Assembly (NCBI RefSeq): GCF_024502345.1
Contig: NZ_JALDNN010000001.1
Strand: one strand, 5' to 3'
Length of the DNA: 64,000 nucleotides
DNA from: Escherichia coli
GTDB lineage: Bacteria > Pseudomonadota > Gammaproteobacteria > Enterobacterales > Enterobacteriaceae
In this document: positions 15,461-58,200 of the stretch, one piece after another
How the letters are laid out: each line of letters opens with the position of its first letter
How positions within the stretch are numbered: position 1 is the first letter of the stretch
Notes under the pieces: generated by a model
The model's database searches: none
What the model was told of the DNA's origin: nothing
What the model saw: the letters and a program-made list of their open reading frames with translations, nothing else
Translations under genes and position numbers: made by a program

Positions 15461-15652
15461 ATAGTAAGCAGTGGCTCATTCACCGACTTATGTCAGCCCC
15501 TTCGGGACGTGCTACATAAAATTCGAATGACGCACAACAAGGTGCCTGCCGTCCAACTTCTGATATCAGCGTAGCTATATCAACCATCGGGCGAAACGTC
15601 GAGTTAGGCACCGCCTTATTCCATAACAAAGCCGGGTAATTCCCGGCTTTGT
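15461..15652 (+). ncRNA. glmY: Small RNA GlmY
   Basis: Sequence agtggctcattcaccgacttatgtcagcccc... recognised as GlmY; ends in hairpin gccggg-taatt-cccggc plus U-tract (15631-15653); lies between purL and glrK on the same strand. Confidence 0.8.
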
Positions 15653-17303: not shown

Positions 17304-18017
17304 ATGCGACACATTTTTCAACGATTATTGCCCCGACGGCTGTGGCTGGCAGGGCTGCCATGTCTGGCATTGCTGGGTTGCGTGCAGAATCACAATAAGC
17401 CAGCCATTGATACGCCAGCAGAAGAAAAAATTCCGGTTTATCAACTGGCTGACTATCTTTCTACTGAATGTAGCGACATCTGGGCGCTGCAAGGTAAATC
17501 AACCGAAACCAATCCGCTTTACTGGCTGCGGGCGATGGATTGTGCTGATCGTTTAATGCCTGCGCAGTCGCGTCAGCAAGCTCGCCAATATGACGACGGC
17601 AGCTGGCAAAATACCTTTAAACAAGGGATTTTGCTCGCCGACGCCAAAATTACGCCGTATGAGCGCCGCCAGCTGGTCGCGCGTATTGAAGCGTTAAGTA
17701 CCGAGATCCCGGCACAGGTTCGCCCACTGTATCAACTCTGGCGCGACGGTCAGGCGCTGCAACTGCAACTGGCGGAAGAGCGCCAACGTTACAGTAAACT
17801 CCAGCAGTCCAGCGACAGCGAGCTGGATACATTGCGCCAGCAACATCACGTTCTACAGCAGCAACTGGAACTCACCACCCGCAAGCTGGAAAACCTGACC
17901 GATATTGAACGCCAGCTCTCGACCCGCAAACCGGCTGGAAATTTCTCGCCGGATACGCCGCACGAGAGTGAAAAGCCCGCGCCATCCACCCATGAGGTCA
18001 CTCCTGATGAGCCATAA
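17304..18017 (+). CDS. qseG: Outer-membrane lipoprotein QseG (YfhG)
   Basis: 237 aa from ATG 17304; lipobox LLGC; Gln-rich coiled-coil C-terminus; overlaps glrR start by 11 nt. Confidence 0.85.
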   Translation: MRHIFQRLLPRRLWLAGLPCLALLGCVQNHNKPAIDTPAEEKIPVYQLADYLSTECSDIWALQGKSTETNPLYWLRAMDCADRLMPAQSRQQARQYDDGSWQNTFKQGILLADAKITPYERRQLVARIEALSTEIPAQVRPLYQLWRDGQALQLQLAEERQRYSKLQQSSDSELDTLRQQHHVLQQQLELTTRKLENLTDIERQLSTRKPAGNFSPDTPHESEKPAPSTHEVTPDEP

Positions 18018-19341
18018 ACCTGCGCATTTATTATTGGTCGATGACGATCCGGGATTGCTGAAACTGCTTGGCCTGCGCCTGACCAGCGAAGGCTACAGTG
18101 TGGTCACGGCGGAAAGTGGCGCTGAAGGATTACGGGTACTGAATCGCGAAAAAGTAGATTTAGTTATCAGCGACCTGCGGATGGATGAAATGGACGGTAT
18201 GCAGCTGTTTGCTGAAATCCAGAAAGTGCAGCCGGGAATGCCGGTAATTATTCTTACCGCGCATGGTTCTATTCCCGATGCCGTTGCTGCAACACAGCAG
18301 GGCGTTTTTAGTTTCCTCACCAAGCCTGTCGATAAAGACGCGCTATATCAGGCAATTGATGATGCGCTGGAACAATCCGCGCCAGCCACCGACGAACGCT
18401 GGCGCGAGGCGATTGTCACCCGCAGCCCGCTGATGCTGCGTTTGCTGGAACAGGCGCGGCTGGTGGCGCAATCAGACGTCAGCGTTTTGATTAATGGCCA
18501 GAGCGGCACCGGGAAAGAGATTTTCGCCCAGGCTATCCACAACGCCAGCCCGCGCAATAGCAAACCATTTATTGCTATTAACTGTGGTGCATTGCCTGAG
18601 CAATTGCTGGAGTCGGAGCTGTTTGGTCATGCGCGTGGCGCGTTTACTGGCGCTGTCAGCAATCGCGAAGGTTTATTCCAGGCGGCGGAAGGCGGAACGC
18701 TATTTCTCGATGAGATTGGCGATATGCCTGCGCCGTTGCAGGTTAAACTGTTGCGCGTGTTGCAGGAGCGTAAAGTGCGCCCGCTGGGCAGTAACCGCGA
18801 TATTGATATCAATGTGCGGATTATTTCTGCCACTCACCGTGATCTGCCAAAAGCGATGGCGCGCGGGGAATTCCGCGAAGATCTCTATTACCGCCTCAAC
18901 GTTGTCAGCCTGAAAATTCCGGCACTGGCGGAGCGCACAGAAGACATTCCGCTACTGGCAAATCACCTGTTGCGCCAGGCGGCAGAGCGGCATAAACCGT
19001 TTGTCCGCGCGTTCTCTACCGATGCGATGAAACGCCTGATGACCGCGAGCTGGCCGGGTAATGTGCGCCAGTTGGTCAACGTGATTGAACAGTGCGTGGC
19101 ACTGACCTCATCTCCGGTGATTAGTGATGCATTAGTAGAGCAGGCGCTGGAGGGCGAAAATACGGCGCTGCCAACCTTTGTTGAGGCACGTAATCAGTTT
19201 GAACTCAACTATTTGCGTAAGCTGCTGCAAATTACCAAAGGCAACGTCACCCACGCGGCGAGAATGGCGGGGCGCAACCGGACAGAATTTTATAAACTGC
19301 TTTCCCGACACGAGCTGGATGCAAACGATTTCAAGGAATGA
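18007..19341 (+). CDS. glrR: Sigma54-dependent response regulator GlrR (QseF)
   Basis: Start set at ATG 18007 ([14 protein letters not shown], 444 aa); receiver domain, AAA+ sigma54-activator domain with GAFTGA, C-terminal HTH. Confidence 0.9.
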
Positions 19342-19365
19342 ATTGGCGTTATGTGTTACGTTTAG

Positions 19366-19740
<375 letters not shown>

Positions 19741-22753: not shown

Positions 22754-23947
22754 TCAAATCTGTCGTAACTGCGCCTCAACATACAAATAGCCAATCCCCA
22801 ACACCTGTTGTGCGCGGCTTAATTGCCCAAAGCCAATTTGCGTTGCTTTCACGCTCGGCCCTTCGTCGCGGTCGAACGGGTTAAATCCCGTCTGGCGAAT
22901 AATGGTATTAAGCCAGTGCTCACCAAAGGCACAACTGCGACCGTACAACCAAATCTGATTAATATTGAGGATGTTGAGGAAGTTATACAGACTCAAACCA
23001 ATGGCATTGGCACTGCGATCAACCCAGCTGGTGATCCACGGTTCTCCACTCTGCCAGGCAGCGATTAACTGCGCGGTTGTCAGTTTTTCAGGATCAAGCT
23101 GAGTATTAACCGGTTGTGATTTTAGCCATACCCGCGCCTGTTTTTTTAATGCACTTAACGAGGCGACGGTTTCCAGGCAGCCGTAACGTCCACAGTCGCA
23201 GACGACGCCATCCGGATTAACGATGGTGTGACCAATCTGTCCGCTACCATACAAACTGCCGCGATAAATTTGCTCGTTAATCACGAACGACGAGCCAATG
23301 CCGTAATCAACGTTGATCACGCAGAAATCCCGTTCCTGCGAATTATTTTGCCATTTCTCCGCCAGCGCCAGCATCACGCAGTCATTATCGACCATCACCC
23401 GAATGCCCAGCTTCTCTTCCAGCAGATACTTCACCTCAACCGGCGTTGTCCACGGCGCTTGCGGCATGGTTTGCGACACGCCGGTCACCGGATCAACCTG
23501 ACCGTGGATTGCCAGCGCCAGATTGATGGTGCGGTCCGGCCACAATTTACGGTGGCGATGCCAGCATTTTTCGATTTCGGACAGCAGCGCCTGCGGCGTC
23601 GGTGCATCAATCTGTAAATACTCAAATTCACCTTTCGGACTTAAACAAGCATTAGCAACCTGACACTCAATACTGGTGGGCGTCACGTTCAGGCACAGCG
23701 TCCAGTCACCTTCCGGCGCAATCAGCCATGTACCGCTACTATGCCCGCGCGTCTGGCTTTCATCGTCGATATTCACCACCCGTTTTTCGCTTTCCAGTTC
23801 CTGCAAAATATTACTGACTGCCGGAATCGAAATTTGCGCCAGCCGGGCCAGCGTTGATTTATTGGCGCGCTTTTGCCGGTACAGCAGTTCCAGAATCACG
23901 CATTTGTTATGGTGGCGAATCTGTTGATTGTTAATGCAGGCTCTCAT
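22754..23947 (-). CDS. yphH: ROK (NagC/XylR)-family transcriptional regulator YphH
   Basis: 397 aa from ATG 23947; N-terminal HTH and ROK sugar-kinase-like fold with CxCGxxGC zinc motif. Confidence 0.85.
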   Translation of the reverse strand: MRACINNQQIRHHNKCVILELLYRQKRANKSTLARLAQISIPAVSNILQELESEKRVVNIDDESQTRGHSSGTWLIAPEGDWTLCLNVTPTSIECQVANACLSPKGEFEYLQIDAPTPQALLSEIEKCWHRHRKLWPDRTINLALAIHGQVDPVTGVSQTMPQAPWTTPVEVKYLLEEKLGIRVMVDNDCVMLALAEKWQNNSQERDFCVINVDYGIGSSFVINEQIYRGSLYGSGQIGHTIVNPDGVVCDCGRYGCLETVASLSALKKQARVWLKSQPVNTQLDPEKLTTAQLIAAWQSGEPWITSWVDRSANAIGLSLYNFLNILNINQIWLYGRSCAFGEHWLNTIIRQTGFNPFDRDEGPSVKATQIGFGQLSRAQQVLGIGYLYVEAQLRQI

Positions 23948-24064: not shown

Positions 24065-27000
24065 ATGACTCCAGTAAAAGTGTGGCAAGAGCGCGTTGAG
24101 ATCCCGACCTATGAAACCGGGCCGCAGGATATACATCCCATGTTCCTGGAAAATCGCGTTTATCAGGGATCGTCCGGCGCGGTTTATCCCTACGGCGTGA
24201 CCGATACGCTGAGCGAGCAGAAAACCCCGAAATCCTGGCAGGCGGTGTGGCTGGAAAACGACTACATCAAAGTGATGATCCTGCCGGAACTGGGCGGTCG
24301 GGTGCATCGCGCATGGGATAAAGTGAAACAACGCGATTTTGTCTATCACAATGAAGTCATTAAACCTGCGCTGGTGGGGCTGCTGGGACCGTGGATCTCT
24401 GGCGGGATTGAGTTTAACTGGCCGCAACACCATCGCCCGACCACCTTTATGCCCGTTGATTTCACCCTCGAAGCCCATGAAGACGGCGCACAGACGGTGT
24501 GGGTCGGCGAAACGGAGCCGATGCACGGTTTACAGGTGATGACAGGTTTCACCCTGCGCCCTGACCGGGCGGCGCTGGAAATCGCCAGCCGCGTCTATAA
24601 CGGCAACGCCACGCCGCGTCATTTCTTGTGGTGGGCCAACCCGGCAGTGAAAGGGGGGGAAGGGCATCAGAGCGTTTTCCCGCCGGATGTGACTGCGGTG
24701 TTTGATCACGGCAAACGGGCCGTCTCCGCTTTCCCCATCGCCACCGGCACTTACTACAAAGTGGACTACTCCGCTGGAGTGGACATTTCTCGCTATAAAA
24801 ATGTGCCCGTTCCAACCTCATATATGGCCGAAAAATCGCAGTACGATTTTGTTGGCGCGTGGTGTCACGATGAAGATGGCGGTTTGCTACACGTTGCCAA
24901 CCACCATATTGCGCCAGGTAAAAAGCAGTGGAGCTGGGGACACAGTGAATTTGGCCAGGCGTGGGATAAGAGCCTAACTGATAATAACGGCCCGTATATC
25001 GAACTGATGACCGGTATTTTTGCCGATAACCAGCCCGATTTTACCTGGCTTGATGCTTACGAAGAGAAGCGTTTTGAGCAGTATTTCCTGCCTTATCATT
25101 CTTTGGGCATGGTGCAAAATGCCTCCCGCGATGCGGTGATAAAACTCCAGCGTAGTGAGCGGGGGATTGAGTGGGGGCTGTATGCCATCTCTCCGTTGAA
25201 CGGATACCGCCTGGCGATCCGCGAAATCGGCAAATGCAACGCGTTACTTGATGATGCCGTGGCACTGATGCCTGCGACCGCCATCCAGGGCGTGTTGCAC
25301 GGTATCAATCCTGAAAGGCTGACCATTGAGCTCTCCGATGCCGACGGCAATATTGTACTGAGTTATCAGGAACATCAGCCGCAAGAGTTGCCGTTGCCGG
25401 ACGTCGCCAAAGCGCCACTGGCAGCACAAGACATTACCAGTACAGATGAAGCCTGGTTTATCGGTCAGCATCTGGAGCAATATCATCACGCCAGCCGTTC
25501 ACCGTTCGATTACTACCTGCGCGGCGTGGCGCTGGATCCGCTGGATTACCGCTGTAACCTGGCGCTGGCGATGCTGGAATATAACCGCGCAGATTTCCCG
25601 CAAGCGGTGGCGTATGCCACTCAGGCTCTGAAACGCGCACATGGGCTGAACAAAAATCCGCAGTGCGGACAGGCGAGTTTGATTCGCGCCAGTGCTTACG
25701 AACGTCAGGGACAATATCAACAAGCCGAAGAGGATTTCTGGCGTGCGGTCTGGAGCGGCAACAGTAAAGCCGGAGGCTATTATGGTCTGGCACGACTGGC
25801 GGCGCGTAATGGTAACTTCGACGCGGGTCTGGATTTTTGCCAACAAAGTCTTCGCGCCAGCCCAACCAATCAGGAAGTGCTTTGCCTGCATAATCTGCTG
25901 CTGGTGTTAAGTGGTCGTCAGGACAACGCGCGTTTGCAGCGCGAGAAACTGCTGCGCGATTATCCGCTGAACGCCACTCTGTGGTGGCTGAACTGGTTCG
26001 ATGGTCGTAGCGAATCAGCTCTCGCGCAGTGGCGCGGTCTGTGTCAGGGACGCGACGTTAACGCCCTGATGACCGCCGGGCAACTGATTAACTGGGGAAT
26101 GCCCACCCTGGCGGCAGAGATGCTGAACGCACTGGACTGCCAGCGCACGCTGCCGCTTTACCTGCAAGCCAGCTTGCTGCCGAAAGCCGAACGTGGCGAA
26201 CTGGTCGCAAAAGCCATTGATGTCTTTCCGCAGTTTGTCCGTTTCCCGAATACGCTGGAAGAAGTGGCGGCGCTGGAGAGTATTGAAGAGTGCTGGTTTG
26301 CTCGCCATTTACTGGCCTGCTTCTACTACAACAAACGTAGCTACAACAAAGCCATTGCCTTATGGCAACGTTGCGTAGAGATGTCGCCGGAGTTTGCCGA
26401 CGGCTGGCGCGGGTTAGCGATCCATGCGTGGAATAAGCAACACGATTATGAGCTGGCCGCGCGTTATCTTGATAATGCTTATCAGCTTGCGCCGCAGGAT
26501 GCACGTCTGCTTTTCGAACGGGATTTGCTTGATAAGTTAAGTGGAGCCACACCGGAGAAACGACTGGCGCGTCTGGAAAATAATCTGGAAATTGCGCTGA
26601 AACGCGACGACATGACCGCAGAACTGCTCAATTTATGGCATCTCACGGGGCAGGCAGACAAAGCGGCGGACATTCTCGCCACGCGCAAATTCCACCCGTG
26701 GGAAGGCGGGGAAGGGAAGGTCACCAGTCAGTTTATCCTCAACCAGTTATTACGCGCCTGGCAGCATCTTGATGCCAGACAGCCGCAGCAGGCCAGCGAA
26801 CTGCTTCATGCCGCGCTGCATTATCCGGAGAATTTAAGCGAAGGCCGTTTACCGGGGCAAACTGATAACGACATCTGGTTCTGGCAGGCGATATGCGCCA
26901 ACGCGCAGGGCGATGAAACTGAAGCGACGCGTTGTTTACGTCTGGCGGTGACCGGCGATCGCACCATTAACATCCACAGTTATTACAACGATCAGCCGGT

Positions 27001-27346
27001 TGATTATCTCTTCTGGCAAGGAATGGCGCTGCGACTGCTGGGCGAACAACACACCGCACAGCAACTGTTTAGTGAAATGAAACAGTGGGCGCAAGAGATG
27101 GCGAAAACCAGTATTGAGGCGGATTTCTTTGCTGTTTCACAACCTGATCTGTTGTCGCTGTATGGCGATTTACAACAGCAGCATAAAGAAAAATGCCTGA
27201 TGGTGGCGATGCTGGCGTCCGCGGGACTCGGGGAGGTTGCGCAATATGAGTCTGCTCGCGCTGAATTGACGGCGATTAATCCGGCCTGGCCGAAAGCGGC
27301 ATTATTCACCACCGTGATGCCTTTTATTTTTAACCGCGTTCACTAA
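24065..27346 (+). CDS. yphG: Large TPR-repeat protein YphG (function unknown)
   Basis: Start set at ATG 24065 (MTPVKVWQERVEIPTYE, 1093 aa); multiple TPR-like repeats in the C-terminal half. Confidence 0.85.
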   Translation: MTPVKVWQERVEIPTYETGPQDIHPMFLENRVYQGSSGAVYPYGVTDTLSEQKTPKSWQAVWLENDYIKVMILPELGGRVHRAWDKVKQRDFVYHNEVIKPALVGLLGPWISGGIEFNWPQHHRPTTFMPVDFTLEAHEDGAQTVWVGETEPMHGLQVMTGFTLRPDRAALEIASRVYNGNATPRHFLWWANPAVKGGEGHQSVFPPDVTAVFDHGKRAVSAFPIATGTYYKVDYSAGVDISRYKNVPVPTSYMAEKSQYDFVGAWCHDEDGGLLHVANHHIAPGKKQWSWGHSEFGQAWDKSLTDNNGPYIELMTGIFADNQPDFTWLDAYEEKRFEQYFLPYHSLGMVQNASRDAVIKLQRSERGIEWGLYAISPLNGYRLAIREIGKCNALLDDAVALMPATAIQGVLHGINPERLTIELSDADGNIVLSYQEHQPQELPLPDVAKAPLAAQDITSTDEAWFIGQHLEQYHHASRSPFDYYLRGVALDPLDYRCNLALAMLEYNRADFPQAVAYATQALKRAHGLNKNPQCGQASLIRASAYERQGQYQQAEEDFWRAVWSGNSKAGGYYGLARLAARNGNFDAGLDFCQQSLRASPTNQEVLCLHNLLLVLSGRQDNARLQREKLLRDYPLNATLWWLNWFDGRSESALAQWRGLCQGRDVNALMTAGQLINWGMPTLAAEMLNALDCQRTLPLYLQASLLPKAERGELVAKAIDVFPQFVRFPNTLEEVAALESIEECWFARHLLACFYYNKRSYNKAIALWQRCVEMSPEFADGWRGLAIHAWNKQHDYELAARYLDNAYQLAPQDARLLFERDLLDKLSGATPEKRLARLENNLEIALKRDDMTAELLNLWHLTGQADKAADILATRKFHPWEGGEGKVTSQFILNQLLRAWQHLDARQPQQASELLHAALHYPENLSEGRLPGQTDNDIWFWQAICANAQGDETEATRCLRLAVTGDRTINIHSYYNDQPVDYLFWQGMALRLLGEQHTAQQLFSEMKQWAQEMAKTSIEADFFAVSQPDLLSLYGDLQQQHKEKCLMVAMLASAGLGEVAQYESARAELTAINPAWPKAALFTTVMPFIFNRVH

Positions 27347-27722
27347 ATCTTATTAACTGTAATATTTGAGCGGCACGCGCTGCCGCTCATCACAAAATAA
27401 TTAGAATAAGCCGTTGTAAATAAAAACCCTACAGGAGGCACTATGCCTAAAAAAATGAGAACAACCCGTAATTTATTATTAATGGCTACGCTATTGGGTA
27501 GCGCACTATTTGCCAACGCTGCGGATAAAGAAATGACCATTGGCGCAATATACCTTGATACCCAGGGATATTACGCTGGAGTGCGTCAGGGCGTTCAGGA
27601 TGCGGCAAAAGATTCTTCAGTACAGGTACAGTTAATTGAAACTAACGCCCAGGGTGATATTTCGAAAGAAAGTACCTTTGTTGATACCCTCGTGGCGCGT
27701 AATGTCGATGCCATTATTTTAT

Positions 27723-27731
27723 CGGCAGTGT
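27723..27731. repeat. Target-site duplication, left copy (CGGCAGTGT)
   Basis: Identical 9-mer immediately flanks both IS ends. Confidence 0.9.
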
Positions 27732-28788
27732 GGCTTTGTTGAATAAATCGAACTTTTGCTGAGTTGAAGGATCAGATCACGTATCTTCCCGACAACGCAG
27801 ACCGTTCCGTGGCAAAGCAAAAGTTCAAAATCACCAACTGGCCCACCTACAATAAAGCCCTCATCAACCGTGGCTCCATAACTTTCTGGCTGGATGATGA
27901 AGCTATTCAGGCCTGGTATGAGTCAGCAACACCTTCTTCACGAGGCAGACCTCAGCGCTATTCTGACCTTGCCATCACGACTGTGCTGGTCATTAAACGC
28001 GTATTCAGGCTGACCCTGCGCGCTGCGCAGGGCTTTATTGATTCCATTTTTTCTCTGATGAACGTTCCGCTACGCTGCCCGGATTACAGCTGTGTCAGCA
28101 GGCGGGCAAAGTCGGTTAATGTCAGTTTCAAAACGCCCACCCGGGGTGAAATCGCACACCTGGTAATTGATTCCACCGGGCTGAAGGTCTTCGGTGAAGG
28201 CGAGTGGAAAGTCAAAAAGCATGGCCAGGAACGCCGCCGTATCTGGCGTAAGCTGCATCTCGCCGTTGACAGTAAAACACATGAAATCATCTGCGCTGAC
28301 CTGTCGCTGAACAACGTTACGGACTCAGAGGCCTTCCCCGGGTTAATCCGGCAAACCCACCGGAAAATCAGGTCAGCCGCCGCCGATGGCGCTTACGATA
28401 CCCGGCTATGTCACGATGAACTGCGGCGTAAGAAAATCAGCGCGCTTATCCCTCCCCGAAAAGGTGCGGGTTACTGGCCCGGTGAATATGCAGACCGTAA
28501 CCGTGCAGTGGCTAATCAGCGAATGACCGGGAGTAATGCGCGGTGGAAATGGACAACAGATTACAACCGTCGCTCGATAGCGGAAACGGCGATGTACCGG
28601 GTAAAACAGCTGTTCGGGGGTTCACTGACACTGCGTGACTACGATGGTCAGGTTGCAGAGGCTATGGCCCTGGTACGAGCGCTGAACAAAATGACGAAAG
28701 CAGGTATGCCTGAAAGCGTGCGTATTGCCTGAAAACACAACCCGCTACGGGGGAGACTTACCCGAAATCTGATTTATTCAACAAAGCC
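27732..28788 (+). mobile_element. IS903-group insertion sequence (IS5 family), 1057 bp
   Basis: 18-bp perfect terminal inverted repeats ggctttgttgaataaatc at 27732-27749 and reverse-complemented at 28771-28788; single DDE transposase ORF; flanked by 9-bp direct repeats. Confidence 0.9.
27809..28732 (+). CDS. IS903-type transposase
   Basis: Frame open from 27764; GTG at 27809 gives 307 aa, matching the remembered IS903 transposase length; true start codon uncertain. Confidence 0.8.
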   Translation: MAKQKFKITNWPTYNKALINRGSITFWLDDEAIQAWYESATPSSRGRPQRYSDLAITTVLVIKRVFRLTLRAAQGFIDSIFSLMNVPLRCPDYSCVSRRAKSVNVSFKTPTRGEIAHLVIDSTGLKVFGEGEWKVKKHGQERRRIWRKLHLAVDSKTHEIICADLSLNNVTDSEAFPGLIRQTHRKIRSAAADGAYDTRLCHDELRRKKISALIPPRKGAGYWPGEYADRNRAVANQRMTGSNARWKWTTDYNRRSIAETAMYRVKQLFGGSLTLRDYDGQVAEAMALVRALNKMTKAGMPESVRIA

Positions 28789-28797
28789 CGGCAGTGT
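28789..28797. repeat. Target-site duplication, right copy (CGGCAGTGT)
   Basis: Identical to 27723-27731. Confidence 0.9.
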
Positions 28798-29514
28798 CTG
28801 AAAATGGCAGTAGCCGTACCGTTCGTCGCGCCAGTGAAGCGGGTATTCCGGTGATTTGCTACAACACCTGTATTAATCAAAAGGGGGTCGATAAATATGT
28901 CTCGGCGTATCTGGTCGGCGATCCGCTGGAATTTGGTAAAAAACTGGGTAACGCTGCCGCCGATTATTTTATTGCCAATAAAATTGACCAGCCGAAAATT
29001 GCCGTCATCAATTGCGAAGCCTTTGAAGTTTGTGTGCAGCGACGTAAAGGATTTGAAGAAGTATTAAAATCCCGCGTTCCCGGCGCGCAAATTGTCGCTA
29101 ATCAGGAAGGGACTGTTTTAGATAAAGCGATTTCCGTTGGTGAAAAACTGATTATCTCCACGCCGGATCTCAACGCCATTATGGGGGAGTCGGGCGGTGC
29201 GACACTCGGCGCGGTAAAAGCGGTACGTAATCAAAATCAGGCCGGAAAAATTGCTGTTTTCGGTTCGGATATGACAACCGAAATTGCTCAGGAGCTGGAA
29301 AACAATCAGGTGCTGAAAGCGGTAGTGGATATTTCCGGTAAGAAAATGGGCAATGCTGTTTTCGCGCAAACATTGAAGGTTATCAATAAACAAGCCGACG
29401 GTGAAAAAGTGATTCAGGTGCCAATCGATCTCTATACCAAAACGGAAGATGGTAAACAGTGGCTGGCAACGCACGTTGATGGTCTGCCCTAATCGCTGAT
29501 TCGCAGAGGTCCCT

Positions 29515-31026
29515 ATGTTCACGGCAACAGAGGCAGTCCCGGTAGCAAAAGTGGTGGCAGGAAATAAGCGTTACCCCGGCGTCGTTGCGCTGGATAACGT
29601 TAACTTCACGCTCAATAAAGGCGAAGTTCGTGCGCTGTTAGGTAAAAACGGCGCGGGCAAATCGACTCTCATTCGAATGCTTACCGGCAGCGAACGCCCG
29701 GATAGCGGTGATATCTGGATTGGCGAGACGCGACTGGAAGGTGACGAAGCTACGTTGACTCGCCGTGCCGCTGAACTGGGGGTTCGTGCGGTTTATCAGG
29801 AGTTAAGTCTGGTGGAGGGACTGACGGTGGCGGAAAACCTCTGCCTCGGTCAGTGGCCCCGCCGCAACGGCATGATTGATTACCTGCAAATGGCGCAGGA
29901 TGCCCAACGTTGCTTACAGGCGCTGGGCGTTGACGTTAGCCCTGAACAACTTGTTTCAACGCTAAGCCCGGCGCAAAAGCAACTGGTGGAAATTGCGCGG
30001 GTGATGAAGGGCGAGCCGCGCGTGGTCATTCTTGATGAACCTACCAGTTCGCTTGCCAGTGCGGAAGTTGAACTGGTGATCAGCGCGGTGAAAAAGATGT
30101 CGGCACTGGGCGTGGCGGTAATTTATGTCAGCCACCGGATGGAAGAAATTCGCCGCATTGCCTCCTGTGCCACTGTTATGCGCGATGGTCAGGTGGCGGG
30201 CGATGTGATGCTCGAAAACACCTCCACGCATCATATTGTGTCGCTAATGCTAGGGCGTGATCACGTTGATATTGCGCCGGTAGCCCCTCAGGAAATTGTG
30301 GATCAGGCCGTGCTGGAAGTCCGTGCATTACGCCATAAGCCCAAGCTGGAGGATATCAGCTTTACGTTACGTCGCGGCGAAGTGCTTGGCATTGCTGGCC
30401 TGCTGGGGGCAGGGCGCAGTGAATTGCTGAAGGCGATTGTTGGGCTGGAGACGTATGAACAGGGCGAAATTGTTATCAACGGCGAGAAAATCACGCGCCC
30501 CGATTACGGCGACATGCTGAAACGCGGCATTGGCTATACGCCAGAAAACCGCAAAGAAGTGGGGATCATTCCCTGGTTGGGCGTTGACGAAAATACAGTG
30601 CTGACCAATCGGCAAAAAATCAGCGCCAACGGAGTGCTGCAATGGTCCACCATCCGCCGCCTGACCGAAGAGGTGATGCAGCGGATGACGGTCAAGGCCG
30701 CCAGTAGCGAAACGCCCATCGGCACGCTTTCTGGTGGCAATCAGCAAAAAGTGGTGATCGGTCGTTGGGTCTATGCCGCCAGCCAGATTTTGTTGCTCGA
30801 CGAGCCAACGCGCGGCGTCGATATCGAAGCCAAACAGCAGATTTACCGTATTGTCCGTGAGCTGGCTGCCGAAGGAAAAAGCGTGGTGTTTATCTCCAGT
30901 GAAGTGGAGGAGTTGCCGCTGGTGTGCGACCGCATCCTGTTGTTACAGCACGGTACGTTCTCGCAGGAGTTTCACTCGCCGGTCAATGTGGATGAGCTGA
31001 TGTCCGCCATTCTGTCTGTGCACTGA
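29515..31026 (+). CDS. yphE: Sugar ABC transporter ATP-binding protein (duplicated ATPase domains)
   Basis: 503 aa; two Walker A/ABC signature (LSGGNQQK) modules typical of ribose/xylose-type importer ATPases. Confidence 0.9.
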   Translation: MFTATEAVPVAKVVAGNKRYPGVVALDNVNFTLNKGEVRALLGKNGAGKSTLIRMLTGSERPDSGDIWIGETRLEGDEATLTRRAAELGVRAVYQELSLVEGLTVAENLCLGQWPRRNGMIDYLQMAQDAQRCLQALGVDVSPEQLVSTLSPAQKQLVEIARVMKGEPRVVILDEPTSSLASAEVELVISAVKKMSALGVAVIYVSHRMEEIRRIASCATVMRDGQVAGDVMLENTSTHHIVSLMLGRDHVDIAPVAPQEIVDQAVLEVRALRHKPKLEDISFTLRRGEVLGIAGLLGAGRSELLKAIVGLETYEQGEIVINGEKITRPDYGDMLKRGIGYTPENRKEVGIIPWLGVDENTVLTNRQKISANGVLQWSTIRRLTEEVMQRMTVKAASSETPIGTLSGGNQQKVVIGRWVYAASQILLLDEPTRGVDIEAKQQIYRIVRELAAEGKSVVFISSEVEELPLVCDRILLLQHGTFSQEFHSPVNVDELMSAILSVH

Positions 31027-31050
31027 TGAATTTTACCGAGGAACCTGAAG

Positions 31051-32049
31051 ATGTCTGCTTCGTCATTATCATTGCCGCAGGGCAAGAGCGTCTCGCTCAA
31101 ACAATTTGTCAGTCGCCATATTAATGAGATCGGTTTGCTGGTGGTAATCGCCATTCTTTATCTGGTCTTCTCCCTGAACGCGCCTGGCTTTATCTCATTG
31201 AATAACCAGATGAACGTGCTGCGCGATGCCGCCACCATTGGGATTGCCGCCTGGGCGATGACGCTGATTATTATCTCCGGTGAAATTGATGTCAGCGTTG
31301 GGCCGATGGTGGCTTTTGTCTCGGTGTGCCTGGCATTTTTGCTGCAATTTGAAGTTCCGCTGGCGGTGGCGTGTCTGCTGGTGTTGCTGTTAGGCGCGCT
31401 GATGGGAACGCTCGCCGGGGTGCTGCGCGGCGTGTTTAACGTACCAAGTTTCGTTGCCACACTGGGGCTGTGGAGCGCCCTGCGCGGAATGGGGCTGTTT
31501 ATGACCAACGCACTGCCAGTGCCGATTGACGAAAACGAGGTGCTGGACTGGCTGGGCGGACAATTTCTCGGTGTGCCAGTATCCGCGCTGATCATGATGG
31601 TGTTGTTTGCGCTGTTTGTGTTCATTAGCCGAAAAACCGCCTTCGGGCGCTCGGTTTTTGCCGTTGGCGGTAATGCCACGGCGGCGCAGTTGTGCGGTAT
31701 TAACGTTCGTCGGGTGCGCATTCTTATCTTTACCCTTTCGGGATTATTAGCGGCGGTGACCGGCATTTTGCTGGCGGCACGCCTCGGTTCCGGTAACGCA
31801 GGTGCCGCAAACGGTCTGGAGTTTGACGTCATCGCTGCGGTCGTGGTCGGCGGTACGGCACTTTCCGGCGGTCGCGGTTCCCTGTTCGGTACATTGCTTG
31901 GTGTGCTGGTGATTACGCTAATCGGTAACGGTCTGGTGCTGCTCGGTATTAACTCCTTTTTCCAGCAGGTGGTACGCGGCGTCATCATCGTGGTGGCGGT
32001 GCTGGCGAATATCTTGCTGACCCAGCGAAGCAGTAAAGCGAAACGCTAA
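31051..32049 (+). CDS. yphD: Sugar ABC transporter permease
   Basis: 332 aa, multi-span hydrophobic protein of RbsC/AraH type. Confidence 0.9.
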   Translation: MSASSLSLPQGKSVSLKQFVSRHINEIGLLVVIAILYLVFSLNAPGFISLNNQMNVLRDAATIGIAAWAMTLIIISGEIDVSVGPMVAFVSVCLAFLLQFEVPLAVACLLVLLLGALMGTLAGVLRGVFNVPSFVATLGLWSALRGMGLFMTNALPVPIDENEVLDWLGGQFLGVPVSALIMMVLFALFVFISRKTAFGRSVFAVGGNATAAQLCGINVRRVRILIFTLSGLLAAVTGILLAARLGSGNAGAANGLEFDVIAAVVVGGTALSGGRGSLFGTLLGVLVITLIGNGLVLLGINSFFQQVVRGVIIVVAVLANILLTQRSSKAKR

Positions 32050-32114
32050 ACCTTAACGCCCCTGGCGCGGGTGCGGCAGGGATGAAAATTAATCGTATTG
32101 TTAATGAGGGATTT

Positions 32115-33176
32115 ATGAAAACGATGCTGGCAGCTTATTTACCAGGAAATTCAACCGTCGATCTGCGGGAAGTTGCGGTGCCGACGCCGGGGATTAACCA
32201 GGTACTGATCAAAATGAAATCCTCCGGGATTTGCGGAAGCGATGTCCACTATATCTATCATCAACACCGTGCCACGGCGGCGGCACCCGATAAACCGTTA
32301 TACCAGGGATTTATCAACGGTCATGAACCGTGCGGGCAGATTGTGGCGATGGGGCAAGGCTGCCGCCATTTTAAAGAGGGCGACCGCGTGCTGGTGTATC
32401 ACATTTCTGGCTGTGGTTTTTGCCCGAACTGCCGCCGCGGCTTTCCTATCTCTTGTACTGGCAAAGGAAAAGCGGCTTACGGCTGGCAGCGTGACGGCGG
32501 TCATGCCGAATATCTGCTGGCGGAAGAAAAAGATCTGATCCTCCTGCCGGATGCGCTGAGCTACGAAGATGGTGCGTTTATCAGTTGCGGCGTTGGCACG
32601 GCCTATGAAGGGATTTTGCGCGGCGAAGTTTCCGGCAGCGATAACGTGCTGGTGGTCGGTCTGGGGCCGGTCGGCATGATGGCGATGATGCTGGCGAAAG
32701 GTCGCGGTGCAAAACGGATCATCGGCGTTGATATGCTGCCGGAACGTCTGGCGATGGCAAAACAGTTAGGGGTGATGGATCACGGCTATTTAGCAACCAC
32801 CGAAGGTCTGCCGCAGATTATCGCCGAACTCACCCACGGTGGCGCGGATGTTGCGCTCGATTGTTCTGGTAATGCCGCAGGTCGCTTGCTGGCACTGCAA
32901 TCCACCGCTGACTGGGGACGGGTGGTTTACATTGGTGAAACCGGAAAAGTGGAATTCGAGGTCAGCGCCGATCTGATGCACCATCAACGGCGGATTATCG
33001 GCTCCTGGGTGACCAGTCTGTTCCATATGGAAAAATGCGCCCACGATTTGACTGACTGGAAGCTGTGGCCGCGTAACGCCATTACCCATCGCTTCTCGCT
33101 GGAACAGGCAGGTGATGCCTATGCGCTGATGGCGAGCGGCAAATGCGGGAAAGTTGTGATTAACTTCCCGGATTAA
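32115..33176 (+). CDS. yphC: Zinc-dependent alcohol/polyol dehydrogenase
   Basis: Start set at ATG 32115 (MKTMLAAY..., 353 aa); GHEPCG zinc motif and GLGPVG NAD-binding motif. Confidence 0.85.
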   Translation: MKTMLAAYLPGNSTVDLREVAVPTPGINQVLIKMKSSGICGSDVHYIYHQHRATAAAPDKPLYQGFINGHEPCGQIVAMGQGCRHFKEGDRVLVYHISGCGFCPNCRRGFPISCTGKGKAAYGWQRDGGHAEYLLAEEKDLILLPDALSYEDGAFISCGVGTAYEGILRGEVSGSDNVLVVGLGPVGMMAMMLAKGRGAKRIIGVDMLPERLAMAKQLGVMDHGYLATTEGLPQIIAELTHGGADVALDCSGNAAGRLLALQSTADWGRVVYIGETGKVEFEVSADLMHHQRRIIGSWVTSLFHMEKCAHDLTDWKLWPRNAITHRFSLEQAGDAYALMASGKCGKVVINFPD

Positions 33177-33187
33177 GGAGTTAGCGG

Positions 33188-34060
33188 ATGACCATCTATA
33201 CCTTATCCCACGGGTCGCTAAAGCTGGACGTTTCTGACCAGGGCGGCGTAATCGAAGGCTTCTGGCGCGATACGACGCCGCTCTTACGTCCTGGTAAAAA
33301 AAGCGGTGTGGCAACCGATGCCTCATGTTTTCCGCTGGTGCCATTTGCAAACCGGGTGAGCGGCAACCGTTTTGTCTGGCAGGGGCGTGAGTATCAACTG
33401 CAACCGAATGTTGAGTGGGATGCGCACTATCTACACGGCGATGGCTGGCTGGGCGAGTGGCAATGTGTCTCGCACAGCGATGATAGTTTGTGTCTGGTGT
33501 ATGAACATCGCAGCGGTGTCTATCACTATCGGGTAAGTCAGGCGTTTCATTTAACGGCGGATACGCTGACGGTGACGCTCTCTGTCACCAATCAAGGAGC
33601 AGAGACGCTGCCATTTGGTACCGGCTGGCATCCTTATTTTCCGTTGTCACCACAAACGCGGATTCAGGCGTAGGCGAGCGGTTACTGGCTGGAACGGGAG
33701 CAGTGGCTGGCGGGTGAGTTTTGCGAGCAGCTACCGCAGGAACTGGATTTTAACCAGCTCGCGCCGTTGCCGCGCCAGTGGGTGAACAATGGTTTTGCCG
33801 GATGGAATGGTCAGGCCCGCATCGAGCAGCCGCAGGAAGGTTATGCCATCATCATGGAAACGACGCCACCTGCACCGTGTTATTTCATCTTTGTTTCCGA
33901 CCCTGCGTTTGATAAAGGATATGCGTTTGATTTCTTCTGTCTGGAACCGATGAGCCATGCGCCGGATGATCATCATCGCCCGGAAGGGGGTGATCTCATT
34001 GCGCTAGCACCAGGGGAATCAACAACTTCAGAGATGTCGTTGCGGGTAGAGTGGCTGTAA
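33188..34060 (+). pseudogene. yphB: yphB (aldose 1-epimerase family) interrupted by in-frame amber codon
   Basis: Single frame 33188-34060 (290 codons) broken only by TAG at 33671-33673; both segments (161 aa and downstream) read as one mutarotase-like protein. Confidence 0.8.
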
Positions 34061-34069
34061 TTTATTAAA

Positions 34070-34101
34070 TGCCGGATAAGGCGTTCACGCCGCATCCGGC
34101 A
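34070..34101. repeat. REP element
   Basis: tgccggataaggcgttcacgccgcatccggca palindromic unit between convergent yphB and yphA. Confidence 0.6.
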
Positions 34102-34107
34102 TCTTTC

Positions 34108-34530
34108 CTAACGCCGATCGAGAGAAATTGCCCCCGGCCCGGTAATTGCCAATAGCAAGAACGCGCCAGCGATACTGACATTCTTCCAGAAATTAATCAT
34201 ATTTGGCCCAACCGCATCGCCGGTCATATCCCAGTAATGGTGACCAATCACCGCCGTACCCAGCGTGTAGAAAATAAACAGCACTGCCAGCGGACGGGTG
34301 AAAAAGCCAAGCACGATTAATATCGCGGCGGGCACTTCCATAACTACCGCAATAATCGCTGCCAGCATCGGCATTGGCGCGCCCAACGAGGCCATATATT
34401 GGACCGTACCGTCAAAGCCCATCATTTTGGGAAAACCAAAAATAATGAAAATTAAGACCACGGCGATACGGGCAATTAATAACAAAACGGGGCGGGCAGC
34501 TCCAAAATCAAAATAACGTAGTGTGTTCAT
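34108..34530 (-). CDS. yphA: DoxX-family inner membrane protein YphA
   Basis: Start set at ATG 34530 (MNTLRYFDF..., 140 aa); four hydrophobic segments. Confidence 0.85.
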
Positions 34531-46051: not shown

Positions 46052-46291
46052 TTTAACCGTCCTGTTTCGTGTTGCATCTGCGTTGACTGCACATACTCAC
46101 TCCGGTCACTTACTTATGTAAGCTCCCGGAGATTCGTAAGTTTGTCAACTTGCTGAAACCCGAAACAGTTAGGTTAAAGATAACAAGATATTAGAATCAG
46201 GCCGGGGCGTATCGCGCTCCGTAAACACGGTCGTACATCCAGCCGGTAGCCTGGTTCCTTGCATTGAGTGATGTACGGAGTTTATAGAGCA

Positions 46292-52889: not shown

Positions 52890-53666
52890 ATGTCCGAAAC
52901 AAAAAACGAACTTGAAGACCTGCTGGAAAAAGCAGCAACCGAACCGGCGCACCGCCCGGCCTTTTTCCGTACTCTACTGGAATCCACCGTCTGGGTGCCA
53001 GGTACGGCGGCGCAGGGCGAGGCTGTGGTTGAAGATAGCGCGCTTGATTTACAGCACTGGGAAAAAGAAGACGGCACCAGCGTTATTCCTTTTTTCACCT
53101 CGTTAGAAGCACTTCAACAGGCGGTTGAAGACGAACAGGCATTTGTCGTAATGCCCGTTCGCACATTGTTTGAGATGACCCTTGGCGAAACGCTCTTCCT
53201 TAATGCCAAACTGCCGACCAGTAAAGAATTTATGCCGCGTGAAATCAGTTTGTTGATTGGTGAAGAGGGAAATCCGCTGAGCAGCCAGGAAATCCTGGAA
53301 GGCGGTGAATCGCTGATATTATCGGAAGTCGCAGAGCCGCCAGCACAAATGATTGATTCACTCACCACCTTATTTAAAACTATTAAGCCGGTGAAGCGTG
53401 CTTTTATATGTTCAATTAAAGAGAACGAAGAGGCACAGCCTAATTTACTTATTGGCATTGAAGCCGATGGTGATGTCGAAGAAATTATTCAGGCGGCGGG
53501 AAGTGTAGCGACCGATACATTACCTGGCGATGAACCAATCGATATTTGTCAGGTGAAAAAAGGGGAAAAAGGAATTAGCCACTTTATTACCGAACATATT
53601 GCGCCATTCTATGAACGTCGTTGGGGTGGTTTTTTGCGTGACTTTAAACAGAACCGGATAATCTAA
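52890..53666 (+). CDS. sseB: SseB family protein (serine sensitivity enhancing B)
   Basis: 258 aa from ATG 52890 (MSETKNELEDLL); alternative GTG 52881 would add 3 aa. Confidence 0.85.
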   Translation: MSETKNELEDLLEKAATEPAHRPAFFRTLLESTVWVPGTAAQGEAVVEDSALDLQHWEKEDGTSVIPFFTSLEALQQAVEDEQAFVVMPVRTLFEMTLGETLFLNAKLPTSKEFMPREISLLIGEEGNPLSSQEILEGGESLILSEVAEPPAQMIDSLTTLFKTIKPVKRAFICSIKENEEAQPNLLIGIEADGDVEEIIQAAGSVATDTLPGDEPIDICQVKKGEKGISHFITEHIAPFYERRWGGFLRDFKQNRII

Positions 53667-53697
53667 AATATGCCGCCCCAAAGGGCGGCATTCGGGC

Positions 53698-53823
53698 TTA
53701 CCTGCTGTTCTGAAGGTTGTTAACCACCAGTAAATTGTTGCCGGAGAGACTCAGGTTATTATTTACCTCGGTTAACAGCGCACCAGAAACAATAAGTACG
53801 ATACAAAAGCACCGTATCTTCAT
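53698..53823 (-). CDS. Candidate small hydrophobic protein (41 aa), TimP-like type I toxin
   Basis: ATG at 53823 (minus) to TAA 53700-53698; translation MKIRCFCIVLIVSGALLTEVNNNLSLSGNNLLVVNNLQNSR; basic N-terminus then hydrophobic stretch; weak GGA SD; in-frame upstream ATG at 53835 also possible. Confidence 0.4.
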   Translation of the reverse strand: MKIRCFCIVLIVSGALLTEVNNNLSLSGNNLLVVNNLQNSR

Positions 53824-53886
53824 TGTGCGGTCCATGCGAAGACCGCATCACGACAGCACCACTGGCGATATTGCCGCGATAGCAAG

Positions 53887-53903
53887 CGCTGAGACGCGCT
53901 TGC
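53887..53903. repeat. 17-nt direct repeat copy A (cgctgagacgcgcttgc) within ryfA leader, embedded in palindrome agcaagcgc-tgagac-gcgcttgct
   Basis: Exact 17-mer recurs at 54047-54063. Confidence 0.85.
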
Positions 53904-54011
53904 TCTAACGGTCGCGGAACATCCTTTCCTTAAGCCAGCGCCCGCTTGCGAGACGGCGGAAAGGGCCGCAGTGGATAATACACTAACAGAACAATAATAA
54001 CTCTCTTTTGC

Positions 54012-55210: not shown

Positions 55211-58200
55211 ATGAAAAAGTTACGCGTAGCCGCCTGCATGCTAATGCTGGCGCTGGCAGGGTGCGACAACAACGATAACGCGCCAACAGCGGTGAAAAAA
55301 GATGCGCCTTCTGAAGTTACTAAAGCGGCCTCTTCAGAAAACGCGAGTTCAGCAAAACTCTCCGCGCCAGAGCGACAAAAACTGGCACAACAGAGTGCCG
55401 GTAAGGCGCTGACATTGCTGGATCTCTCTGAAGTCCAACTTGATGGTGCAGCCACGCTGGTGCTGACGTTCTCCATCCCTCTCGACCCGGATCAGGATTT
55501 CTCACGCGTTATTCATGTCGTCGATAAAAAAAGCGGCAAAGTGGATGGTGCCTGGGAGCTATCAGATAATCTTAAAGAGCTGCGTTTACGCCACCTCGAA
55601 CCGAAACGTGATTTGATCGTTACTATTGGCAAGGAGGTCAAAGCACTCAACAACGCAACCTTCAGTAAAGATTACGAAAAAACTATAACTACCCGCGACA
55701 TCCAACCCAGCGTCGGTTTTGCCAGCCGTGGTTCGCTGCTGCCTGGTAAAGTCGTTGAAGGGCTGCCGGTAATGGCGCTCAACGTTAATAATGTCGATGT
55801 TAACTTCTTCCGCGTTAAGCCAGAATCTCTGCCAGCATTCATTAGCCAATGGGAATACCGCAATTCGCTGGCGAACTGGCAGTCAGACAAACTGCTGCAG
55901 ATGGCGGATCTGGTCTACACCGGACGGTTTGATCTCAATCCTGCGCGTAACACCCGTGAAAAATTATTGCTGCCGCTGGGCGATATCAAACCGCTTCAGC
56001 AGGCGGGCGTGTATCTGGCTGTGATGAATCAGGCTGGACGTTACGATTACAGTAATCCCGCGACGCTGTTTACGTTAAGTGATATCGGCGTTTCAGCTCA
56101 CCGTTATCACAATCGTCTGGATATCTTTACCCAAAGTCTGGAAAACGGCGCGGCCCAGCAAGGAATTGAAGTCTCTTTATTAAATGAGAAAGGGCAGACT
56201 CTGACTCAGGCAACCAGTGACGCTCAGGGGCATGTGCAGCTGGAAAATGATAAAAATGCGGCATTACTGCTGGCACGTAAAGACGGTCAGACAACGCTAC
56301 TCGATTTAAAACTTCCGGCGCTGGACTTAGCAGAATTTAACATTGCTGGCGCGCCAGGCTATAGCAAACAGTTTTTCATGTTTGGCCCGCGCGATCTTTA
56401 TCGCCCGGGTGAAACGGTCATCCTCAATGGTTTGCTGCGTGATGCAGACGGTAAAGCGTTGCCCGATCAACCCATCAAGTTAGACGTGATTAAACCCGAC
56501 GGGCAGGTTCTCAGGAGCGTCGTTAGTCAGCCGGAGAATGGCCTCTACCACTTAACCTGGCCACTCGATAGCAATGCGGCAACCGGTATGTGGCATATCC
56601 GAGCCAACACTGGGGATAACCAATATCGGATGTGGGATTTCCACGTCGAAGATTTTATGCCGGAGCGCATGGCGTTGAATCTGACCGGCGAGAAAACGCC
56701 ATTAACGCCAAAAGATGAAGTGAAATTCTCGGTGGTGGGGTACTACCTGTACGGTGCACCTGCTAATGGTAATACCTTGCAGGGACAGCTTTTCCTGCGG
56801 CCGCTGCGTGAAGCGGTTTCTGCATTGCCTGGTTTTGAATTCGGCGATATAGCTGCCGAAAACCTTTCCCGCACGCTGGATGAAGTTCAGTTGACGCTGG
56901 ATGATAAAGGGCGCGGCGAAGTTTCTACAGAAAGCCAGTGGAAGGAAACGCATTCCCCATTGCAGGTTATTTTCCAGGGCAGTTTGCTGGAATCGGGCGG
57001 TCGCCCGGTGACGCGCCGCGCTGAGCAGGCTATCTGGCCTGCCGATGCATTGCCGGGGATCCGTCCGCAGTTCGCCTCGAAATCGGTTTACGATTATCGT
57101 ACTGACAGCACGGTGAAACAGCCCATTGTTGATGAAGGCAGTAACGCCGCTTTTGACATCGTTTATAGCGATGCGCAAGGCGTGAAAAAAGCCGTGTCGG
57201 GCTTGCAGGTGCGCCTGATTCGCGAACGCCGCGATTACTACTGGAACTGGTCAGAAGATGAAGGCTGGCAGTCACAGTTTGATCAAAAAGATCTGATCGA
57301 AAATGAACAAACTCTGGATCTGAAAGCGGACGAAACCGGCAAGGTCAGTTTTCCGGTAGAGTGGGGCGCTTATCGTCTGGAAGTCAAAGCGCCGAATGAA
57401 GCGGTCAGTAGTGTTCGTTTCTGGGCTGGCTATAGCTGGCAGGACAACAGCGACGGTAGCGGCGCAGTGCGACCCGACCGTGTCACGCTGAAACTGGATA
57501 AAGCCAGTTATCGCCCTGGCGACACCATTAAGTTGCATATCGCCGCGCCAACGGCGGGTAAAGGTTATGCGATGGTCGAGTCCAGTGAAGGGCCGCTGTG
57601 GTGGCAAGAGATTGATGTTCGGGCTCAAGGGCTGGATCTGACGATTCCGGTCGATAAAACCTGGAATCGTCATGATCTGTATTTAAGTACGCTGGTGGTA
57701 CGTCCTGGCGATAAATCTCGCTCCGCGACGCCAAAACGCGCGGTTGGTGTGTTGCATCTGCCGCTTGGCGATGAAAACCGTCGCCTCGATCTGGCGCTGG
57801 AAACACCAGCAAAAATGCGTCCCAATCAACCATTAACCGTGAAAATTAAAGCCAGCACTAAAAATGGCGAGAAGCCTAAACAGGTGAATGTGCTGGTGTC
57901 TGCCGTTGATAGTGGTGTGCTGAATATTACTGACTACGTCACGCCAGATCCGTGGCAGGCGTTCTTTGGTCAGAAACGCTATGGCGCAGACATTTACGAT
58001 ATTTACGGTCAGGTTATTGAAGGTCAGGGGCGTCTGGCAGCTCTGCGTTTCGGTGGCGATGGTGATGAGCTGAAACGTGGTGGTAAACCGCCGGTCAATC
58101 ACGTCAATATTGTCGCGCAGCAGGCGCTGCCGGTAACGCTCAACGAACAGGGCGAAGGCTCGGTTACACTGCCGATTGGCGATTTTAACGGTGAATTGCG

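Follow-up and report, generated by a model that had tools for sequence, protein, structure and literature searches.

An amber codon interrupts yphB in an Escherichia coli yph cluster that also carries IS903B in yphF

In the 64-kb window (the whole stretch of Escherichia coli DNA that was analyzed), yphB was identified with high confidence as a nonsense pseudogene that arose by a CAG → TAG change, in a cluster that would be undergoing neutral decay and in which IS903B later entered yphF. By descent the locus belongs to the aldose 1-epimerase family, and by its broken frame it is a pseudogene, which is real but ordinary; no new mechanism is involved. For annotation, this means that yphB (33188-34060) and yphF should both be marked as pseudogenes and that the yph system is to be regarded as non-functional in this strain.

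Translation of 33188-34060 on the + strand resulted in 290 codons before the terminal TAA, and codon 162 is an internal stop. Around this stop the peptide reads ...SPQTRIQA*ASGYWLEREQW..., and in the program-made list of open reading frames yphB appears as 33188-33673 (161 aa) and a leftover ORF at 33767-34060. The features of the locus are:

33188..34060, + strand: yphB pseudogene (aldose 1-epimerase/mutarotase family) with 1 internal stop, from translation, allele comparison, PDB 3nre and PF01263
33671..33673, + strand: amber TAG in place of CAG (Gln162), mutated base T33671, from comparison with intact alleles
33188..33673, + strand: truncated product of 161 aa, with His83 and His148 kept and the invariant Glu253 missing, from the ORF list and the 62-sequence alignment
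33674..34060, + strand: untranslated 3' remainder of yphB, codons 163-290 and TAA, encoding Glu253 (CLEP motif), with the frame open and identical to intact alleles

When yphB of the window was compared base by base with the two closest intact alleles, those of JNEC-KY175 (NZ_AP045171) and NCTC9064, T33671 instead of C was the sole difference, and the wild-type codon 162 was identified as CAG (Gln). No gaps were observed in the comparison with intact alleles. A single C → T difference with zero gaps indicates that a transition created the amber codon and that the lesion is not a frameshift. The 128 codons 3' of the stop are still open and still homologous, showing that the pattern is neither that of a chance ORF nor that of a gene boundary. 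A preliminary description of the locus, made from the letters alone, had proposed that the frame of 290 codons is continuous except for one in-frame amber codon, caused by a point nonsense lesion. Translation confirmed the former, and the finding that CAG → TAG is the only change from the nearest intact alleles supports the latter; the sense codon at this position, which had been left to be read from orthologs, is CAG (Gln). A Dcm hotspot was considered separately as the origin of the mutation and was rejected, as the mutated C lies in GCAGG and not in CC(A/T)GG.

With the 873 bases as query, a megablast search of 5,426 complete RefSeq E. coli genomes identified yphB, annotated as "aldose 1-epimerase", in 5,389 genomes, with a query coverage of at least 80% in 5,379 of these and a best identity of 99.9%; no genome among the 5,426 contained a yphB identical to that of the window. 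In this collection yphB is a near-core gene. The gene was assigned as the ortholog of yphB by its 99.9% identity to annotated yphB and by its flanking genes, which are the same. When Gln was put in place of the stop, residues 1-290 of the protein aligned with the K-12 YphB structure 3nre at E 1e-208, and L190 against P was the only substitution. With codon 162 again taken as Gln, the Pfam domain Aldose_epim (PF01263) covered residues 3-285, corresponding to positions 2-298 of the 299 in the model (E 1.9e-54). This single domain, together with the full-length match to 3nre, bears out the earlier proposal that the sequences on both sides of the stop belong to one aldose-1-epimerase. Among 1.84 billion representative proteins, 3,461 relatives of YphB were found, of which the full-length ones are about 285-305 aa long. 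The length of these distant homologs and the coverage in the 5,379 genomes both speak against a naturally short gene, the possibility against which the preliminary description had asked its reading to be checked.

The stop codon interrupts the only Aldose_epim domain of the protein, and 161 of the 290 residues remain. In an alignment of YphB with 61 relatives (62 sequences, 31-51% identity), H83 and E253 were invariant and H148 was conserved in at least 90% of the sequences, while column 162 was variable. These three residues correspond to His92, His162 and Glu254 of HsSQM, and the His/His/Glu residues of mutarotases serve as general acid/base and in substrate binding (PMC5902678). All three are encoded in the yphB frame of the window, with the codon for E253 lying 3' of the stop. 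As the 161-residue fragment is devoid of the catalytic Glu253, the truncated YphB is, judging from the alignment, almost certainly inactive. The galactose mutarotases GalM of E. coli and L. lactis, the SQ mutarotase of H. seropedicae and yeast YMR099C share the galactose-mutarotase-like fold, PF01263 and the His/His/Glu residues with YphB, which is itself a putative mutarotase; in contrast to these characterized enzymes, the catalytic Glu of YphB in the window is encoded downstream of a stop. K-12 YphB (b2544, PDB 3nre) is the product of the same gene in the same context, yphGFEDCB with a convergent yphA. The K-12 gene is full length, as in 5,379 other genomes, whereas the copy in the window has TAG at codon 162 and encodes residues 1-161 only. 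Function as a split gene, with a restart downstream of the stop, was considered for the candidate start codons TTG 33767, GTG 33782 and ATG 33854, for which no evident ribosome-binding site could be seen by eye. No more than 97 residues of the single-domain fold would result from such a restart, which was rejected by inference.

The distribution of the allele was determined with a 41-mer centered on T33671, in a search in which every 28-base seed was forced to contain the T. No match was identified in the 5,426 complete RefSeq E. coli genomes, and a T on a divergent background could be missed in this search. The control 41-mer with C matched 931 genomes, and the null result for T is therefore meaningful on this allele background. 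Among public assemblies, the exact 161-aa product had index entries in 136 blocks. Eight contigs were retrieved, each from a different human-gut metagenome sample, and all of them carried TAG at the same position of yphB; in seven of the eight, yphB was identical to that of the window. The 161-aa product was seen on 83 contigs and is found under the NCBI accessions HAY7439915.1 and HCN6884420.1, while its counterpart from the same allele with Gln162 was present on at least 1000 contigs. The truncated allele is already public, deposited as a "partial" protein.

Pairs of carriers showed 3-81 differences per 16.5 kb, and these formed clustered patches typical of recombination, with a yphC-yphB-yphA core that was almost invariant; this comparison was based on carrier-to-carrier pairs, and JNEC-KY175 served as reference only from yphB onwards as its yphC carries a 3' deletion. 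With differences of this size, the carriers are not copies of one clone. One of the contigs (ENA ERZ27263756, contig k141_94019, human-gut metagenome) differed from the window at 3 of 16,486 positions. For positions 34061-58000 of the window, the nearest of the 5,426 complete genomes was 99.0% identical over 24 kb, and the lineage of the window is poorly represented in this collection. As a lineage marker T33671 is convenient, being present in many human-gut metagenome assemblies and in 0 of the 5,426 complete RefSeq E. coli genomes. The 161-aa product HCN6884420.1 is labeled Shigella flexneri, and the context of the allele, with long contigs and few IS elements, is unlike Shigella. An origin from Shigella, suggested by this label, the IS and the pseudogenes, was rejected, as only one IS and two lesions are present in 64 kb and the carrier contigs reach 146-193 kb.

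The genes surrounding yphB in the yph cluster are:

22754..23947, - strand: yphH, ROK-family putative regulator, intact, divergent from yphG (gene audit)
24065..27346, + strand: yphG, DUF5107/TPR protein, intact, upstream gene of the cluster (gene audit)
29515-31026, + strand: yphE, ABC ATPase, intact (ORF list, gene audit)
31051-32049, + strand: yphD, permease, intact (ORF list, gene audit)
32082-33176, + strand: yphC, Zn-dependent dehydrogenase, intact (ORF list, gene audit)
34108..34530, - strand: yphA, DoxX family, intact, convergent with yphB (gene audit)

On the + strand the gene order is yphF, E, D, C, and B, with intergenic distances of 22, 24, 32, and 11 bp; yphG is located upstream, at a distance of 96 bp from yphF. 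As yphA is convergent, the transcription unit ends with yphB, and there is no gene downstream that the nonsense codon could affect. A scan for promoter and terminator consensus sequences yielded sites that were no more numerous than in shuffled sequence. According to their annotations, YphF, YphE, and YphD would form a putative sugar ABC importer, with YphC as a putative dehydrogenase, YphB as a putative mutarotase, YphG as a DUF5107/TPR protein and YphH as a presumed ROK-family regulator. Searches of the accessible literature on the substrate, activity or role of yphB or the yph cluster retrieved nothing beyond the use of 3nre as a structural template in an alignment.

The second lesion of the cluster is an insertion sequence in yphF, which consists of the following elements:

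27443..27731, + strand: yphF 5' fragment, codons 1-96, periplasmic sugar-binding protein (gene audit, translation into the IS)
27723..27731, no strand: left 9-bp target-site duplication CGGCAGTGT (repeat analysis, 9-bp overlap of the flanking alignments)
27732..28788, + strand: IS903B, 1057 bp, in yphF (terminal inverted repeats, transposase name, identical annotated copies)
27764-28732, + strand: IS903B transposase ORF, 322 aa (named IS903B family)
28789..28797, no strand: right 9-bp target-site duplication CGGCAGTGT (repeat analysis, flanking alignments)
28789..29492, + strand: yphF 3' fragment (gene audit)

A length of ~1057 bp, inverted repeats (33 nt, 79%), one transposase ORF and a 9-bp duplication identify the element as IS903B of the IS5 family, and in many E. 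coli genomes 100% identical annotated copies of IS903B are found, both chromosomal and on plasmids. The intact yphE, yphD, and yphC (29515..33176) separate the insertion from the amber codon within the same operon. All eight amber-carrying contigs contained an intact yphF of 327 aa and thus an empty IS site, which indicates that the insertion of IS903B was a separate and later event. The chimeric ORF of yphF' and the IS (99 aa) was searched for on the public record and none was found. In view of the empty site in the amber-carrying contigs, the insertion can be regarded as recent and specific to the strain of the window. The most parsimonious order would be that the amber mutation occurred first, in the ancestor of the carriers, and that IS903B was acquired later in or near the strain of the window. 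The insertion in yphF deprives the system of its periplasmic binding protein and is probably polar on yphEDCB. Both parts of the earlier proposal, that the amber is the second inactivating lesion of the cluster and that it is independent of the IS in yphF, are in agreement with these results.

To place the two lesions in a wider context, 47 reference genes were checked against the 64-kb window. Those present were, except for yphF and yphB, full length without internal stop; rlmN runs past the end of the window. In yfhM (alpha2-macroglobulin, 55211-60169) a 3-base in-frame indel was observed relative to the reference, with the frame of 1653 codons open. The window thus contains two lesions, both within the ~11-kb yph cluster, and one IS in total. 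Given the first lesion, the chance that the second would also fall in the yph cluster is ~0.17, which is not significant. The yph cluster was additionally surveyed in 13 genomes sampled at regular intervals along the ranking. Three of these had yph lesions of their own and 10 had an intact cluster, a frequency that is rough since two of the three positives were extreme rows of the ranking. In JNEC-KY175 (NZ_AP045171) yphC carried a 3' deletion, in strain 140 (NZ_CP028617) yphH was truncated beside IS1203 and yphC had an internal stop, and in 14EC047 (NZ_CP024155) IS1A and a deletion affected the region from yphF to most of yphB. These cases suggest that the yph operon decays recurrently across E. 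coli lineages, and such repeated independent decay supports the dispensability of this uncharacterized operon in many E. coli niches.

In the explanation that fits these data best, a spontaneous C → T transition on a common E. coli yphB allele would have converted CAG (Gln162) to the amber codon TAG, at which release factor 1 would stop translation with 161 of the 290 residues made. This product would be half of a single-domain beta-sandwich mutarotase, with the two conserved histidines and without Glu253, and would be inactive and probably unstable. The amber allele would by now be present in a modestly diverse set of human-gut E. coli. IS903B would later have entered yphF, the binding-protein gene that heads the same ABC-transporter operon, and would have disabled the pathway further. 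Both lesions fit neutral decay of a dispensable, uncharacterized sugar-utilization cluster. In this explanation we infer the loss of enzyme activity, the order of the events, the polarity of the IS and the neutrality of the decay.

It is considered very unlikely that loss of yph was advantageous in the human-gut E. coli lineage or that YphB is conditionally expressed through a natural Gln suppressor or read-through. If true, selected loss or a conditional YphB would provide the first functional handle on an operon without a known substrate. Under the first of these possibilities, two hits in one operon together with hits elsewhere would represent convergent adaptive inactivation in host-associated E. 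coli. The location of both lesions of the 64-kb window inside the roughly 11-kb yph cluster, the separate yph lesions in strain 140, JNEC-KY175, and 14EC047, and the spread of the amber allele to many gut samples would all fit this. However, a second lesion in the cluster is expected by chance with a probability of ~0.17, and neutral decay itself predicts secondary hits in an operon that is already dead. Moreover, the cluster is intact in 10 of the 13 sampled genomes, yphB is retained in 99% of genomes, and the sample is small, with extreme ranking rows accounting for two of its three hits. Selected loss is therefore very unlikely.

Suppression of the amber codon, either by a natural suppressor tRNA (e.g., of the glnV/supE type, inserting Gln) or by near-cognate read-through, would give a functional full-length YphB. 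The supE (glnV) suppressor inserts Gln at UAG, and as residue 162 of the wild type is Gln, exactly the wild-type YphB would result; other inserted residues would probably be tolerated as well, given the variable column 162. The earlier proposal that the lesion would be silent in an amber-suppressor host is in principle correct, and more strongly so than it was put, as supE supplies the original residue. No damage was seen in the 128 codons 3' of the stop in any of the nine carrier sequences, as read-through would also predict, but this intact 3' half carries no weight, as less than one difference is expected in 387 bp between carriers that are at most 0.5% divergent. The cost of strong suppressors and their rarity outside laboratory strains count against suppression of the yphB amber. 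A search for tRNA genes in the 64-kb window identified none, glnV and the further candidate loci being located in other parts of the chromosome, and a literature search on natural amber suppressors gave nothing relevant. In the strain of the window yphF is disrupted as well, so that a restored YphB would not restore the pathway, and suppression is regarded as very unlikely. Recoding of UAG of the pyrrolysine type was rejected, as E. coli is not known to have such a system.

That T33671 is a sequencing or assembly error in a yphB that is really intact has practically no likelihood: the alleles are otherwise identical and differ in this one base, and no complete RefSeq E. coli genome shares the T, but the same T was found in eight independently assembled metagenome contigs on backgrounds that differ elsewhere, the truncated product is recorded under two NCBI accessions and on 83 contigs, a C → T substitution is unlike the homopolymer indels typical of long-read errors, and the SNP differences among the carriers disfavor a common contaminated dataset. 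The check for such an error that had been suggested at the outset can for practical purposes be considered as passed, with the same TAG in eight independent assemblies and in the NCBI records.

The lesions of the yph cluster can be compared with known cases. The CAG/TAG polymorphism at codon 33 of rpoS in K-12 lineages is a natural amber allele, and rpoS encodes a global regulator; there are conditions under which its loss is known to be selected. The yphB amber resembles it as a circulating CAG → TAG change of a Gln codon that in principle could be exactly restored by supE. Unlike rpoS, yphB is the last gene of an uncharacterized sugar operon and has no known phenotype. The combination of an IS with target duplication and a nonsense mutation in one dispensable operon also resembles the way in which accessory catabolic operons of E. 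coli and Shigella decay through IS insertion and point mutation. In contrast to the genome-wide erosion in Shigella, decay in the window is confined to the yph cluster, with about 45 other genes intact and a single IS.

Several minor observations were made along the window and in the compared genomes. The 47-bp spacer between yphB and yphA contains, at ~34066-34103, a GC-rich palindrome, tgccggataaggcgttcacgccgcatccggca, that is REP-like in look, and in strain UID2309220031 IS1397 was found in the same spacer. In Ecol_732, E2348/69, and AH19D088, whose yphB alleles diverge most (about 95-96% identity), hcaREFCBD is absent and hcaT directly follows yphA. The divergence of the window from JNEC-KY175 was strongly mosaic: qseG, hcaF, iscR, hscB, and ndk were 100% identical, and divergence was seen in purL (11267-15154), glrR/glnB (18007-19740), yphG (24065-27346), and yfhM (55211-60169), ~2%. 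This pattern fits patches of recombination.

The small toxin gene timP (53698-53823, - strand), which lies inside the ryfA sRNA locus (53665-53969, - strand; Rfam RF00126, 314 bits), differed from the reference at 9 of 126 bases (only 92.9% identity), with the neighboring sseB and sseA being far less divergent. The Rfam elements rncO (2586-2800), the ohsC antitoxin sRNA (6213-6289), the GlmY sRNA (15470-15617), and the iscRS stability element (46181-46290) were all complete.
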